Part shown: positions 1 to 47,976 of the stretch, in pieces
How positions within the stretch are numbered: position 1 is the first letter of the stretch
Layout: each line of letters opens with the position of its first letter
Sequence record: MN850574.1
Strand: one strand, 5' to 3'
DNA length: 64,000 nt
Source: Escherichia phage kaaroe
Program-made: the position numbers and the translations under genes
The notes under the pieces: generated by a model
Told to the model about the DNA's origin: nothing
Databases searched by the model: none
The model's input: the letters and a program-made list of their open reading frames with translations, nothing else

Positions 1-43
1 TACACACATCAAAACGAAACACACTTTCTTAAGGAGAATCAAA

Positions 44-322
44 ATGAGCAACCTGTCTTTCGCTAAAGTAGAAATTTCTAAAACTCGCGGTGGCTTTAAA
101 ATCAAAACTTCCAACATCACTTCCTGTCGTGGTTGCGTCCGGTTTGCGTTCGACTTGGCAGCGAAGCTGGGTATTAAAACCTTTACCGTTGAGAGCGGAT
201 CTACCTGGACCACTCTGATTGTTACTGCCGCTTGGATCAATGGCGAGTATGTAGAAAAAGCATACTTTGACATTTTCTATGACTACGAAGAAAAATGCTT
301 TTATGCACTGCAAGACATGTAA
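44..322 (+). CDS. hypothetical protein (92 aa)
   Basis: ORF with AAGGAG RBS 8 nt upstream of ATG; no recognisable homology. Confidence 0.5.
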   Translation: MSNLSFAKVEISKTRGGFKIKTSNITSCRGCVRFAFDLAAKLGIKTFTVESGSTWTTLIVTAAWINGEYVEKAYFDIFYDYEEKCFYALQDM

Positions 323-3873: not shown

Positions 3874-3908
3874 TTGACAATAAGAAATGGGAGTAGTAAA
3901 ATACTCCC
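3874..3908 (+). promoter_or_regulatory. early promoter with GGGAGTA/TACTCCC hairpin (PeSL-like)
   Basis: TTGACA 3874-3879, 17-nt spacer, TAAAAT 3897-3902; arms GGGAGTAG 3889-3896 and TACTCCC 3902-3908. Confidence 0.6.
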
Positions 3909-3933
3909 ATCTAATCAAGAAGGAGAATCAACA

Positions 3934-21221: not shown

Positions 21222-21908
21222 ATGAAACTGACTAAAGAAACCATTGCTACCCTGAAAAACTTTTCCGCTATTAACCCAGGTATCATCCTGAAAAAAGGAA
21301 ACGTCCTGATCACCAAAAACATGACAAACGTTGTATATGGTGAAGCGACTCTGAATCAAGAACTGGAACACGAAATTGGGATCTATGATCTTAACTCTTT
21401 CTTGGGTATTCTGAATCTGGTAGGCGATGAAGCAGATATTACGGTTGACGACCGCACTGGTAACATTCGTGTGTCTAATGATCGTCTGAAAATTAATTAC
21501 CCTGGTGCTAGTGCTGCTGCTATCGTATCACCGAAAGGCCGAGTTACTCCACCTGCAAGCGATGTAGATTACGAACTGAGCAACGACGATCTGAAACAGC
21601 TTATGAAAATGAGCAATCAGCTTAAAGTGGATCGCCTTGAATTTCTTCCGATTGATGGTCGTCTGATGATCAAAGGTTGGGAAGAGATTGACAAAAATAA
21701 TCCTAATGAGATGTTTTGTCTTGATATGGGCGAATATACCGGAACCGCAGACTTCCATTTCTTTATTCGTAAAGATAACATGAAACTGGTTGCTACTGAC
21801 TTCGGCGATTACAAACTGAGCTTCACTCGCCGTAAGGCTGTATGGCTGGCAAGTGAAACCGTATCTTATATGATCGCGTGTGACCTTGACTCCAGCTACA
21901 CCGACTAA
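21222..21908 (+). CDS. 45: sliding clamp gp45
   Basis: MKLTKETIATLKNFSAINPGIILK colinear with recalled T4 gp45 N-terminus; 228 aa. Confidence 0.9.
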   Translation: MKLTKETIATLKNFSAINPGIILKKGNVLITKNMTNVVYGEATLNQELEHEIGIYDLNSFLGILNLVGDEADITVDDRTGNIRVSNDRLKINYPGASAAAIVSPKGRVTPPASDVDYELSNDDLKQLMKMSNQLKVDRLEFLPIDGRLMIKGWEEIDKNNPNEMFCLDMGEYTGTADFHFFIRKDNMKLVATDFGDYKLSFTRRKAVWLASETVSYMIACDLDSSYTD

Positions 21909-21920
21909 TATAATGTTTGT

Positions 21921-21941
21921 GGGGAGTATAAAATACTCCCC
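21921..21941 (+). other. GGGGAGTA/TACTCCCC hairpin with TATAAAAT in loop region
   Basis: 8-bp stem with 5-nt loop between genes 45 and 44; same arm sequence as the PeSL-like promoters. Confidence 0.45.
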
Positions 21942-21974
21942 GTTTTAATGATGTAATTTGTGAGAGGTGATTAT

Positions 21975-29816: not shown

Positions 29817-30452
29817 ATGATCGCTAATGCTTTACCGCCAAAATGGATCGTAAGTCGCTTTTATACTCTCAAGGAAGGTAACGCACCTGATGGTCGTCCG
29901 ATCCGAGATCTGTTTCTGGAGATGACTACAGCCGAAGCACAGTTTTATAATGATCTGACAGACGATAAGCCATTTCTCGTAAATTCGGTGGACCTTGATG
30001 GCAATGTCACATCAATCATCACACATGGTGGGGGAGTGAAAAATATTACTTCTCTGCGTGATCACGGTTGGGAAATTGCTTGTGTATTTCCTGCGGATGT
30101 ACGCGGATTCTTTGATGAGGTATCTGATATTAAAGTAAATGCACTGGAACCATATGACGAGATCCCACCACTGAAAGAAGAAAAAGAGTTGACACCGGAA
30201 GATGTAGATAGTACACTACACCCCGACCTATTTAAGAAGATTAGCGGTTTATGGACTGTTACCCTGTATCCAACCGCATTAGGTCTAGAATTGGGTATGC
30301 CAACTTATTCTGATATTGATAATTGGAATAAGAGCATTGATAAAGATGTTGAAAAACAGCGAAATAATGCTAAAATGCAACTTAAAGAGAAACGCAAAGA
30401 TCTTGAACGACAACTGAAAGAAACAAAACGTTTGCTTTCTACATTCGCTTGA
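29817..30452 (+). CDS. hypothetical protein
   Basis: ORF with GGAGA RBS. Confidence 0.5.
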   Translation: MIANALPPKWIVSRFYTLKEGNAPDGRPIRDLFLEMTTAEAQFYNDLTDDKPFLVNSVDLDGNVTSIITHGGGVKNITSLRDHGWEIACVFPADVRGFFDEVSDIKVNALEPYDEIPPLKEEKELTPEDVDSTLHPDLFKKISGLWTVTLYPTALGLELGMPTYSDIDNWNKSIDKDVEKQRNNAKMQLKEKRKDLERQLKETKRLLSTFA

Positions 30453-33024: not shown

Positions 33025-33528
33025 ATGCAATTTACACCAGAAGAACTTAACATCATTGATGAAGTGATGAACTCTAAAGAAAATATCGATATGTCGATCC
33101 TTAATGGATTGATCGAAAAGACTGAGCGGTTAGTGCATCATGAAGCCTTGTATCGCGGTGTGAGCAAAAGAGAAGGCCGTAAGCTGGATACCTTAATTGT
33201 TGGTGATTCTTTCGTTGTAGAGCGTCCTATGAGCTTTACGCCACTGCAATCAACAGCAGAGGACTTTGCAACCGATGTTTATGCAACAGGAAAGATTATT
33301 GCAATAAAACCTACCAAGCCTTGCATGAATTATTACGAACATGCTATTGACCGAGTGGTGTCTAAAGAGTATGACAATCCGACTACTCGACTGTCTTTGT
33401 ATGCTATGTTGGCAGATGAGCGCGAGTGCATATACAAGACAGGGACGACCATGATCCTTGATGAGATCGAGGAAGTTTACGCGTGTAACGGCGATCTGAT
33501 AGAGATTTACAAATTTTCTTTAATTTAA
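33025..33528 (+). CDS. putative ADP-ribosyltransferase-like protein (Mod-like)
   Basis: Ordered YRG, SFT/QST and ExE (DEIEE) motifs in R-S-E spacing; sits where T4 has modA/modB. Confidence 0.35.
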   Translation: MQFTPEELNIIDEVMNSKENIDMSILNGLIEKTERLVHHEALYRGVSKREGRKLDTLIVGDSFVVERPMSFTPLQSTAEDFATDVYATGKIIAIKPTKPCMNYYEHAIDRVVSKEYDNPTTRLSLYAMLADERECIYKTGTTMILDEIEEVYACNGDLIEIYKFSLI

Positions 33529-33531
33529 GTG

Positions 33532-33560
33532 TTGACAGGACAAACCAGATAGACAATAAT
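33532..33560 (+). promoter_or_regulatory. sigma70-type early promoter with conserved leader
   Basis: TTGACA 33532-33537, about 17-nt spacer, AATAAT 33555-33560; leader ATAATACACACATACCAA..AAGGAGAATCAA. Confidence 0.5.
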
Positions 33561-33589
33561 ACACACATACCAACTAAGGAGAATCAATT

Positions 33590-34345
33590 ATGAAACTGTT
33601 TGCTTTTAAATCTAACGAAGAATTGGCGCTGGTTGTTTTCCGGCTGAACTCTATCATGGCTGGCGCTTCACGTCGCAACAAAGACTTCTCTATGAGCTTA
33701 GTCACTGTGCGTAACATTTACCGTCAGACTCATTGCGCCTATTCAGGTGAAGCGTTCGGTGAAGGTGATGATGGACTCTCCTTAGAGCGCATTGATTGCA
33801 ATCTGGGATATGTTGATGGCAATGTAATTCCGGTTAAACTGAAATACAATTCTTTCCGTGGAAATCACACTATCGAATCTCTTAAAGAGATCCAGGAACT
33901 GGGAACTAACGGTAAACTTTCTGATGATGAAATTGCCCTACGTGCGAAGTACATCGAGTGGATCGAACTTAACGAGAATCGCATCAAAAATCAGGAAATG
34001 GCAATCGAAGAAAAGAAATTAGCAATCGAGCGCCACAAAAAGCACAACGAACCGGAGAAAGCAGAGGCAGCCGAGCGAGCGATTAAAAATACTCTCTTCC
34101 GTATGGAAGAACGTTATCAGAAAATTGCAGATCTCAAGCAAGCACTTAGCGAAATCAACAAGAAAGAAGAAAAACTTAAGGCTATTGCAAACAATACCGA
34201 AATCGTGCTAAAATATACCAGCGTTTTGATTGAATCTCTTTCTAAGTATGAGAACTTAACGCCAGCACAAAAAGAACGCGTGAAATACGGGCTTCCGATT
34301 GATGCGTCGTGGATTGAATTGATGAAAGCGAAGGTAGGTTTATAA
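33590..34345 (+). CDS. hypothetical protein with long coiled-coil segment
   Basis: ORF with AAGGAG RBS; charged helical region AIEEKKLAIERHKK.. Confidence 0.5.
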   Translation: MKLFAFKSNEELALVVFRLNSIMAGASRRNKDFSMSLVTVRNIYRQTHCAYSGEAFGEGDDGLSLERIDCNLGYVDGNVIPVKLKYNSFRGNHTIESLKEIQELGTNGKLSDDEIALRAKYIEWIELNENRIKNQEMAIEEKKLAIERHKKHNEPEKAEAAERAIKNTLFRMEERYQKIADLKQALSEINKKEEKLKAIANNTEIVLKYTSVLIESLSKYENLTPAQKERVKYGLPIDASWIELMKAKVGL

Positions 34346-39671: not shown

Positions 39672-39866
39672 ATGAAACCGTTTAAGAATGAAGAAACTCA
39701 AAAATTTTGTGAAAAAATTGCAGAAATCTACTTGACAGGGAATAAGGAAAAAGCTAATATTATGTTCAAAGAGTCAGTTTCCATGATGAAAGTAGCACGC
39801 TGGGAACTGATCGCAATGCAAGACCAAATTCGTTATCTAGTAACAAAGGAGAATCAAAATGCGTAA
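39672..39866 (+). CDS. hypothetical protein
   Basis: Small ORF downstream of promoter. Confidence 0.4.
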   Translation: MKPFKNEETQKFCEKIAEIYLTGNKEKANIMFKESVSMMKVARWELIAMQDQIRYLVTKENQNA

Positions 39867-46641: not shown

Positions 46642-46651
46642 CTGATTATTA

Positions 46652-46680
46652 AGCCGATCCTTGTGGTCGGCTTTTTTATT
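46652..46680 (+). terminator. intrinsic terminator
   Basis: AGCCGATCcttgtGGTCGGCT followed by TTTTTTATTTT. Confidence 0.7.
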
Positions 46681-46690
46681 TTAAAAGTTG

Positions 46691-46719
46691 TTGACTTCCA
46701 TAATCCATCATTGCATAAT
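46691..46719 (+). promoter_or_regulatory. sigma70-type early promoter with conserved leader
   Basis: TTGACT 46691-46696, 17-nt spacer, CATAAT 46714-46719; leader ATAATACACACATACCAAAC..AAGGAGAATCAA. Confidence 0.55.
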
Positions 46720-46750
46720 ACACACATACCAAACAAAAGGAGAATCAAAG

Positions 46751-47023
46751 ATGAACAACGAAAACAGCAAAGTGTTGGCAATTGCAGATAAAGTAGGTTA
46801 CTGGAAATGCTGGGATGATATGGAGAAATTAGGCGGTCGCTATCTCGATAACTTAGAGTTGCATTATTGCCAAGCGCGTAATGCAGAAGTTGCGGGAGTA
46901 GCAATCGAAGATATTCCGTCTAAAGTCTTCGGATTCTCTAAAGATGATACTCTAGAATATGTTTTCAAGGCTGTTATGGATCAAGCATGGGAAGACGCAG
47001 AGACACGCGCTCTTGACTGGTGA
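46751..47023 (+). CDS. hypothetical protein
   Basis: AAGGAGAATCAAAG then ATG 46751. Confidence 0.45.
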   Translation: MNNENSKVLAIADKVGYWKCWDDMEKLGGRYLDNLELHYCQARNAEVAGVAIEDIPSKVFGFSKDDTLEYVFKAVMDQAWEDAETRALDW

Positions 47024-47027
47024 TAAT

Positions 47028-47198
47028 ATGAACTGGTATAAAATTTGGAAAAATCAGGTGGAGGCTTATCTAGGGTATAAGCCAACCGACGAAGAATTAC
47101 TTGAAGCAATGTACGAAGACGGCTTAAATCCGAAAGTAGCCGCGCAAGAATACGCGGAATGGGTGAAGGTCGAAGATAACCTAAAGGGGAAACTATGA
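47028..47198 (+). CDS. hypothetical small protein
   Basis: ATG 47028; 56 aa. Confidence 0.35.
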   Translation: MNWYKIWKNQVEAYLGYKPTDEELLEAMYEDGLNPKVAAQEYAEWVKVEDNLKGKL

Positions 47199-47395
47199 AG
47201 AAAATGATTGCGATTGCTTTGCTGGCTAGTGCATGTACGGTAAATGCTAATACCGCAGCGATGGTCGCGGCTGTAACTGCTGCAAATGCGTCTGTTATGG
47301 CATCGCAAGAGGCAGCACGCCAGCAAGCACAACAAGAAGCCCAGCGAAAAGCACATGAGGCGACGAAAAATTTCACGAAAATAACAAAAAACTAG
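47195..47395 (+). CDS. small secreted or lipoprotein-like protein
   Basis: N-terminal signal-like MKKMIAIALLASAC with possible lipobox Cys; Ala/Gln-rich mature part. Confidence 0.4.
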   Translation: MKKMIAIALLASACTVNANTAAMVAAVTAANASVMASQEAARQQAQQEAQRKAHEATKNFTKITKN

Positions 47396-47430
47396 TTGAC
47401 GCCAAAGGTCATCGGTAGTATTATACTCCC
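47396..47430 (+). promoter_or_regulatory. sigma70-type early promoter with degenerate hairpin
   Basis: TTGACG 47396-47401, 17-nt spacer, TATTAT 47419-47424; GGTAGTA..TACTCCC arms. Confidence 0.5.
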
Positions 47431-47458
47431 ATACCGAAACGAACTGGAGGAAATAAAA

Positions 47459-47701
47459 ATGGTTAAAGTTAATGTTATCGAAGTTGCACTGTACGACGCT
47501 GGGATCTTCCTGAATGAAAAAGAAGCTGCCGTCCTCGACGAACTGAAAACTGTTTTTGTTCCTGTAGTAGAAGACGTAGAAGCAATCAAAATCGCTTCTC
47601 GTAAACTGTCCCGCGAAGCATTCGACATGATTGATCCGGTTTTCAAAGTTATGCACGAATGCGCGGTTATGATGACCGAAGAAGAAGCGAAAAATTTCTA
47701 A
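47459..47701 (+). CDS. hypothetical protein
   Basis: GGAGG RBS, ATG 47459. Confidence 0.45.
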   Translation: MVKVNVIEVALYDAGIFLNEKEAAVLDELKTVFVPVVEDVEAIKIASRKLSREAFDMIDPVFKVMHECAVMMTEEEAKNF

Positions 47702-47708
47702 AAACTAG

Positions 47709-47743
47709 TTGACGTAAAGATAAGGGAGTAGTAACATACTCCC
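47709..47743 (+). promoter_or_regulatory. early promoter with GGGAGTA/TACTCCC hairpin (PeSL-like)
   Basis: TTGACG 47709-47714, 17-nt spacer, TAACAT 47732-47737; arms GGGAGTAG 47724-47731 and TACTCCC 47737-47743. Confidence 0.55.
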
Positions 47744-47766
47744 ATACCAAACGAAAGGAGAATCAC

Positions 47767-47976
47767 ATGAAATCTATCGAGCAAGTAGTAACAGAGTTTA
47801 TGAGCTACGAAGGAAACCGCATCTTTGGACGTTCTCAAGTTCGCGAGATCGTAGAAGAAGTTGCTGGAGAGTTTGCGGAATCTGGTCACATTATCACGCA
47901 AGAACGTAAAGAAGAAGCAGTAAACCAGATCATGGCTATACAGAAAATGCGTATTAATGCACGAGCGGGGGCTTAA
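47767..47976 (+). CDS. hypothetical protein
   Basis: AAGGAGAATCACATG start context. Confidence 0.45.
   Translation: MKSIEQVVTEFMSYEGNRIFGRSQVREIVEEVAGEFAESGHIITQERKEEAVNQIMAIQKMRINARAGA

Follow-up and report, generated by a model that had tools for sequence, protein, structure and literature searches.

The closest described relatives of the repeat considered here are the early-gene cassettes of RB49, phi1 and JSE, which Arbiol, Comeau, Kutateladze, Adamia and Krisch studied in 2010 (PMC2839356). These elements are known as PeSLs (promoter-early stem-loops), and a stem-loop terminator usually accompanies the promoter cassette in them (Arbiol et al., 2010, PMC2839356; Comeau et al., 2014, PMC4122927). 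RB49 and phi1 carry about 50 PeSLs per genome, with 51 listed for RB49 (Arbiol et al., 2010, PMC2839356). Over about 100 conserved bp a PeSL contains an AT-rich region, sigma70-like -35 and -10 boxes, a stem-loop (five positions), a Shine-Dalgarno sequence and an ATG (PMC2839356). Promoter and terminator activity has been recorded with lacZ fusions of PeSL206/205 and the PeSL211/210 stem-loop, which are other copies than the three considered below (PMC2839356). Reported crossovers between PeSLs lie in the interval from the -10 box to the start codon (Arbiol et al., 2010, PMC2839356). The early promoters of RB49 have also been described on their own. Their consensus has C at -3 to -1 and accords with 5' ends that have been mapped (Nolan et al., 2006, PMC1524935); the mapping itself is that of Desplats et al. 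(2002), taken here from the summary by Nolan et al. (2006, PMC1524935).

The repeat that precedes srd at 33555 and a 90-aa ORF at 46714 is, with a probability of roughly 0.9, the downstream half of the standard early-gene cassette of RB49-like phages (Krischvirus), that is, of the PeSL family. It is a real repeat that the first-pass annotation partly misclassified, and it is a variant of the published PeSL/RB49 early-promoter family. The element, its function and its part in gene shuffling are already known from the literature.

Genomic setting and the three copies

The window, meaning the whole stretch of 64,000 nucleotides analysed, is by sequence comparison the early region of an RB49-like Krischvirus, at about 99% identity. 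A 3-kb stretch around the repeat has 99.3% identity to Escherichia phage FL15 and 98.9% to RB49, and it matches 76 phage records, for the most part Krischvirus. The window runs as the reverse complement of the RB49 record, with the early genes on its + strand. modB lies upstream of srd and ends in a stop codon at 33526-33528, and the srd cassette follows.

33532..33537, + strand: -35 hexamer TTGACA of the srd early promoter (with the -10 hexamer, 11/12 consensus matches; 17-bp spacer)
33555..33560, + strand: -10 hexamer AATAAT, placed by promoter geometry
33561..33589, + strand: discriminator ACACAC, predicted start A33567 and leader, read from the sequence
33590..34345, + strand: srd (Srd anti-sigma factor, 251 aa; RB49 annotation), served by the 33555 cassette

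The stretch upstream of this -35 hexamer (33505-33531) is about 85% A+T. The leader is the 23-nt ATACCAACTAAGGAGAATCAATT, in which the Shine-Dalgarno GGAG (33578-33581) stands 8 nt from the ATG at 33590. Transcription of srd would start at A33567, 7 nt past the -10 box and in a CAT context, judging from the spacing, the preference of RB49 early promoters for C at -3 to -1 and the agreement with mapped 5' ends. No stem-loop or inverted repeat was found inside the srd cassette, which folds no better than shuffled sequence. Strictly speaking, then, this copy falls short of a full PeSL: it consists of an early promoter and the family leader. A distant srd orthologue in Enterobacter phage IME523 (Kanagawavirus; L007 1300-1375) has its own T4-type early promoter, GTTTAC-17-TAGTAT, and a similar A/C-rich leader, ACACCAACATGGAGAAACAAAATG.

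The second copy and the copy that opens the window are laid out as follows.

46651..46683, + strand: intrinsic terminator (hairpin AAGCCGATCCTTGTGGTCGGCTT followed by a T-run), adjoining the -35 box on its upstream side; the stem-loop part of the 46714 cassette
46691..46719, + strand: early promoter TTGACT-17 bp-CATAAT (TTGACT starts at 46691; -10 box CATAAT at 46714-46719)
46720..46750, + strand: discriminator ACACAC, predicted start A46726 and 25-nt leader ATACCAAACAAAAGGAGAATCAAAG, read from the sequence
46751..47023, + strand: 90-aa ORF served by the 46714 cassette; orthologue annotated in GEC-3S
1..43, + strand: third cassette, 3' part (-10 box represented by its last T; ACACAC; CAT with the predicted start at position 8; long leader with AAGGAGAATCAAA)
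44..322, + strand: 92-aa ORF served by the third cassette

Ahead of the -35 box of the 46714 copy, positions 46674-46690 read TTTTTTATTTTAAAAGTTG, and its leader has GGAG at 46739-46742. The GEC-3S record annotates a terminator, a promoter and both the -35 and -10 boxes at the site orthologous to 46691. The rest of the third promoter is cut off by the window edge, and the RB49 orthologue supplies the missing upstream part as TTGACA-GGGGATCGGTGATCCCC-TATACT with 17-bp spacing. The distance from AAGGAG to the ATG is 8 nt at both 33555 and 46714, and 7 nt at the window start. All leaders are essentially unstructured (-0.4 to -2.7 kcal/mol; the 46714 leader, -0.4 kcal/mol).

How might such a cassette work? 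Read from the sequence, it begins with a host sigma70 promoter made up of an AT-rich upstream stretch, TTGACA, 17 bp and xATAAT, next to which comes an A/C-rich discriminator (ACACAC, ACACCC or ACTCCC). Transcription would probably start from the A of CAT, 7 nt past the -10 box, giving a short, unstructured, A/C-rich 5' leader that leads into a strong ribosome-binding site, AGGAGAATCAA, 7-8 nt ahead of the ATG. The cassette would thereby drive immediate-early expression of whichever ORF lies downstream. In the 46714 copy the stem-loop stands upstream as a terminator; the srd copy has none. Being conserved in sequence, the cassettes also offer the phage recombination system brief stretches of homology for inserting, deleting or exchanging ORFs. 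Promoter activity and start sites at all three copies are predicted from the family, as is the early expression of srd and the two ORFs.

One family of early cassettes

The first-pass annotation had called the 33555 and 46714 sites nearly identical, and they are: from the -10 box as far as the ATG they agree at 34 of 40 aligned positions and share an exact 19-mer, in an alignment that spans 33556-33592 and 46715-46753. The strings it quoted do occur in the window, although their first bases are 33556 and 46715, in each case one base downstream of the stated position. Its related leader at the start of the window (1-46) is indeed a related copy. The proteins downstream (the 92-aa ORF, Srd and the 90-aa ORF) are unrelated, as it had also proposed, with no significant mutual BLASTP similarity. 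Paralogy among them was considered and dropped, the best match having E = 0.05 over 30 aa in a five-sequence database.

How far does the repeat extend beyond these sites? ACACACATACCAA has two exact copies in the window (33561 and 46720). At up to two mismatches there are 6 matches against 1.9 expected from the shuffle control in the window, so the weight lies only with the two exact copies. AAGGAGAATCAA, at up to one mismatch, has 7 copies against 0.63 expected in the same kind of control, all on the + strand. ATAC[A/T]C[A/C]CAT likewise occurs 7 times in the window (0.46 expected), on the + strand only, and 19 times in the RB49 genome, on the early strand only. Seventeen of these 19 can be aligned with those of the window across about 75 nt, starting at AAAGTTGTTGAC and taking in the ATG; the remaining RB49 matches, at 133596 and 137048, fail to align with the cassette family and were dropped. 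The family consensus reads AAAGTTGTTGACA, N17, (C/T)ATAAT, ACACCCAT, (AC)CGAAACGAA..., AGGAGAATCAAAATG. A profile built from the alignment finds at least 13 copies in the window, only on the + strand, and several of them lie outside the set from which it was built. Both the profile and the alignment place two further sites in the family.

3874..3933, + strand: family member of the GGGAGTA hairpin type, with AAGGAGAATCAA
47396..47458, + strand: family member TATTAT-ACTCCCATACCGAAACGAAC...

The idea of a portable block (-10 box, leader and Shine-Dalgarno sequence) shared by unrelated genes is thus borne out at many more sites than the three originally listed. A repeat confined to those sites and followed by paralogous proteins, which would have spoken against the idea, is not what was found.

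Within the family the 33555/46714 pair is close yet not exceptional. Its 85% identity ranks 6th of 153 family pairs, with a median of 71% and a maximum of 88%. ACACACAT, the form found at 33555 and 46714, departs on alignment from the family consensus ACACCCAT/ACTCCCAT by one or two bases; all three strings fall into a single alignable family. ACACACAT itself is also present in the RB49 cassettes upstream of ORF191, ORF209 and ORF210. Treating the three strings as one family avoids reporting one known element under several names.

A scan of IMG/VR for the 15-mer ATACACACATACCAA was set aside. It occurs there at 85 loci, of which just 3 (L028, L061 and L076) also have the GGAGAATCA part; the others are chance 15-mer matches in a very large collection.

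Some neighbouring sites deserve a separate mention. A profile match at 30183-30223 (E = 7e-4, TTGACA...TACACTACACCC) lies inside a coding region, the ORF at 29817-30452, and could be either a chance match or an early promoter within the gene. At 39846-39861, AAGGAGAATCAAAATG has no promoter of its own, overlaps the end of the preceding ORF and lies about 240 nt downstream of the 39613 promoter; it follows that the ribosome-binding block can exist apart from the promoter block. Upstream of gene 44, at 21886-21945, an early promoter (TTGACT-17-TATAAT) precedes a perfect hairpin, GGGGAGTA-TAAAA-TACTCCCC. Across the junction of its stem and loop the hairpin contains TATAAAATA, which resembles a late promoter, and RB49 annotates both an early and a late promoter there.

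A possible second role for the leader

One aspect that deserves attention is whether the leader is conserved mainly for what happens after transcription. On this tentative account, which is possible but rather unlikely to be the main reason for conservation, GGAGAATCAAA is a RegB/S1 endoribonuclease target through which the early mRNAs are shut off, the A/C-rich leader is an S1-friendly translation enhancer and recombination is a by-product. GGAGAATCAAA agrees with the T4 consensus GGAGRAYARAA at 10 of 11 positions (Durand et al., 2006, PMC1702504), and since RB49 also encodes regB, the ribosome-binding site may double as an early-mRNA shut-off site. The leaders are unstructured, as such a target would be, and 6 of the 7 AAGGAGAATCA-type sites in the window come directly after an early promoter. 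However, A is strongly preferred at position 8 of the T4 consensus (PMC1702504), and GGAGAATCAAA has C there. Moreover, a strong Shine-Dalgarno sequence with A-rich spacing is expected of any highly expressed gene. The specificity of RB49 RegB is also said to differ from that of T4 RegB. A post-transcriptional role of this kind would add to the early-cassette explanation and does not exclude it.

A bolder version seems improbable, more so than the shut-off account just given. Here the transcribed half (CAT start, A/C-rich leader and GGAGAATCAAA) would have been shaped at once as a translation enhancer, a RegB/S1 shut-off site and a preferred crossover patch, and would form part of a two-class timing code. 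Putative RegB-cut GGAGAATCAAA sites would be set against putative uncut GAGGATTATATT sites. If this were true, genes with the GAGGAwTATATTATG block (10 copies) would resist RegB and stay expressed longer, and Krischvirus ORFs of unknown function would carry a two-class timing code in their cassettes.

A second translation-initiation block, GAGGA(A/T)TAYAYYATG, does recur in the window, in 10 copies that all lie on the + strand. They come directly after early promoters and also inside operons and, unlike the AGGAGAATCAA block, lack GGAG.

700, 4209, 4832, 6065, 13130, 28028, 40325, 48340, 49421 and 49623, + strand: GAGGA(A/T)TAYAYYATG repeat

The GGGAGTA hairpin and exchange between cassettes

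The first-pass annotation set the repeat apart from the GGGAGTA hairpin as a module of a second type, and here it did not hold up. In its strongest form the proposal would make ACACACATACCAA an operator or RNA element with a regulator of its own, and its regulon separate from the hairpin genes. The two sites are, after all, identical over an exact 19-mer, and neither the 33555 nor the 46714 copy has the GGGAGTA 5' arm. Nevertheless, a separate module is very unlikely. The motif grades into ACACCCAT and ACTCCCAT in one alignable family, the identity of the pair falls inside the family range, and a scan of the whole window against Rfam at gathering thresholds gave no match. A hairpin cassette, moreover, has the same leader.

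47709..47766, + strand: GGGAGTA-hairpin cassette TTGACG-17 bp-TAACAT, with which the 46714 cassette is recombined in the ECD7 deletion

This cassette, below called the 47736 cassette, reads TAACAT-ACTCCCATACCAAACGAAAGGAGAATCAC-ATG, and the 46714 cassette reads CATAAT-ACACACATACCAAACAAAAGGAGAATCAAAG-ATG; the leaders are the same (ACTCCCATACCAAACGAAAGGAGAATCAC compared with ACACACATACCAAACAAAAGGAGAATCAA). ACACAC and ACTCCC, the latter being the 3' arm of the hairpin, differ at two positions. The site orthologous to 46714 varies in the same way between phages. RB49 and GEC-3S have ACACCCAT there and ECD7 has ACACAAAT; the FL04 orthologue of the 46751 gene follows a GGGAGTA cassette, TAATAT-ACTCCCATTCCAAACAAAAGGAGAATCAAAGATG. 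The shared leader, taken with this allelic variation, indicates that the versions are interchangeable alleles of one cassette, as far as sequence can tell. As for a chance resemblance between two unrelated AT-rich intergenic regions, only the short length of the repeat speaks for it, and it can practically be dismissed in view of the shuffle controls, the family alignment, the fixed position of the copies with respect to the -35 box, the -10 box and the ATG, and the location of every copy on the early strand.

Recombination at this cassette can be seen in two related genomes. ECD7 (L008 2486-2560), compared with window positions 46749-47766, lacks about 1.0 kb comprising four small ORFs and one internal cassette (gene content taken from GEC-3S). 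It matches the window exactly as far as ...CATAATACACA(A)ATACCAAACAAAAGGAGAATCA, after which comes CATGAAATCT..., where the window gene at 47767 begins. The deletion fuses the 46714 cassette to the 47736 cassette, and its crossover falls within the AAAGGAGAATCA that is common to both leaders. FL04 (L009 1480-1830) differs from window positions 46691-46751 by a 273-bp indel, which in FL04 amounts to an extra 68-aa ORF and a GGGAGTA cassette. The junction falls at the -10 box/discriminator: the window corresponds to the upstream FL04 cassette as far as ...ATAATACACACA and to the downstream FL04 cassette from ...CCAAACAAAAGGAGAATCAAAGATG on. From the sequence, the window looks like a recombinant of the two FL04 cassettes, or else FL04 bears an insertion. 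PeSL-mediated shuffling was proposed in 2010, and the ECD7 and FL04 junctions illustrate it with two natural cases from newer genomes.

The srd site is quieter. An 851-bp query (modB end, cassette and srd start) is 96-99% identical in 58 of 58 Krischvirus records, counting those in which the match covers at least 80% of the query, and no shuffling is evident at the srd copy among these records.

Comparison with known systems

For the annotation of RB49-like phages, which serve in therapy and as model phages, the block marks early transcription units and likely recombination breakpoints. Beyond correct annotation its significance is small. It is closest to the PeSLs of RB49, phi1 and JSE, with which it shares the phage group, the layout and the position before unrelated ORFs of unknown function. 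All three copies have sigma70-like boxes within the 16-18 bp spacing of PeSLs (the third via its RB49 orthologue) and a Shine-Dalgarno sequence and start codon at the 3' end, and the 33555 and 46714 copies have an AT-rich upstream region. By their coordinates, the RB49 ORF191, ORF209 and ORF210 cassettes with ACACACAT are among the PeSL regions of Arbiol et al. (2010). Indels bounded by cassettes, with the crossover inside, are seen at 46714 (ECD7 and FL04) but not, among the 58 records compared, at 33555. The stem-loop divides the copies in the same way, with a terminator hairpin adjoining the 46714 copy and none at the srd copy. The latter also differs from PeSLs in its location, a conserved replication/host-takeover block and not the hyperplastic region.

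The likeness to the RB49 early consensus (Desplats et al., 2002; Nolan et al., 2006, PMC1524935) lies in the TTGACA-type -35 box (G at -33), T/C at -12 and the C-rich stretch from -3 to -1. The difference is that the published descriptions end at the start site, whereas the repeat described here stresses the transcribed leader and ribosome-binding site. T4 RegB/S1 sites (Durand et al., 2006, PMC1702504) resemble the leader in having GGAG followed by an A-rich 7-mer in single-stranded early leaders. They differ at position 8, which is C in the putative RB49-type sites.

More distant are the T4 early promoters and the repeats at the T-even internal-protein loci (Repoila et al., 1994, cited in PMC2839356), where strong promoters and stem-loops also flank swappable small genes. 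These have a GTTTAC -35 box and AT-rich stems, however, and the authors of PMC2839356 call them analogues of PeSLs, not homologues. Finally, morons and integron cassettes are similarly portable, one ORF travelling with its own expression signals, but PeSL-type exchange involves no integrase or attC and relies instead on homology inside the regulatory cassette.
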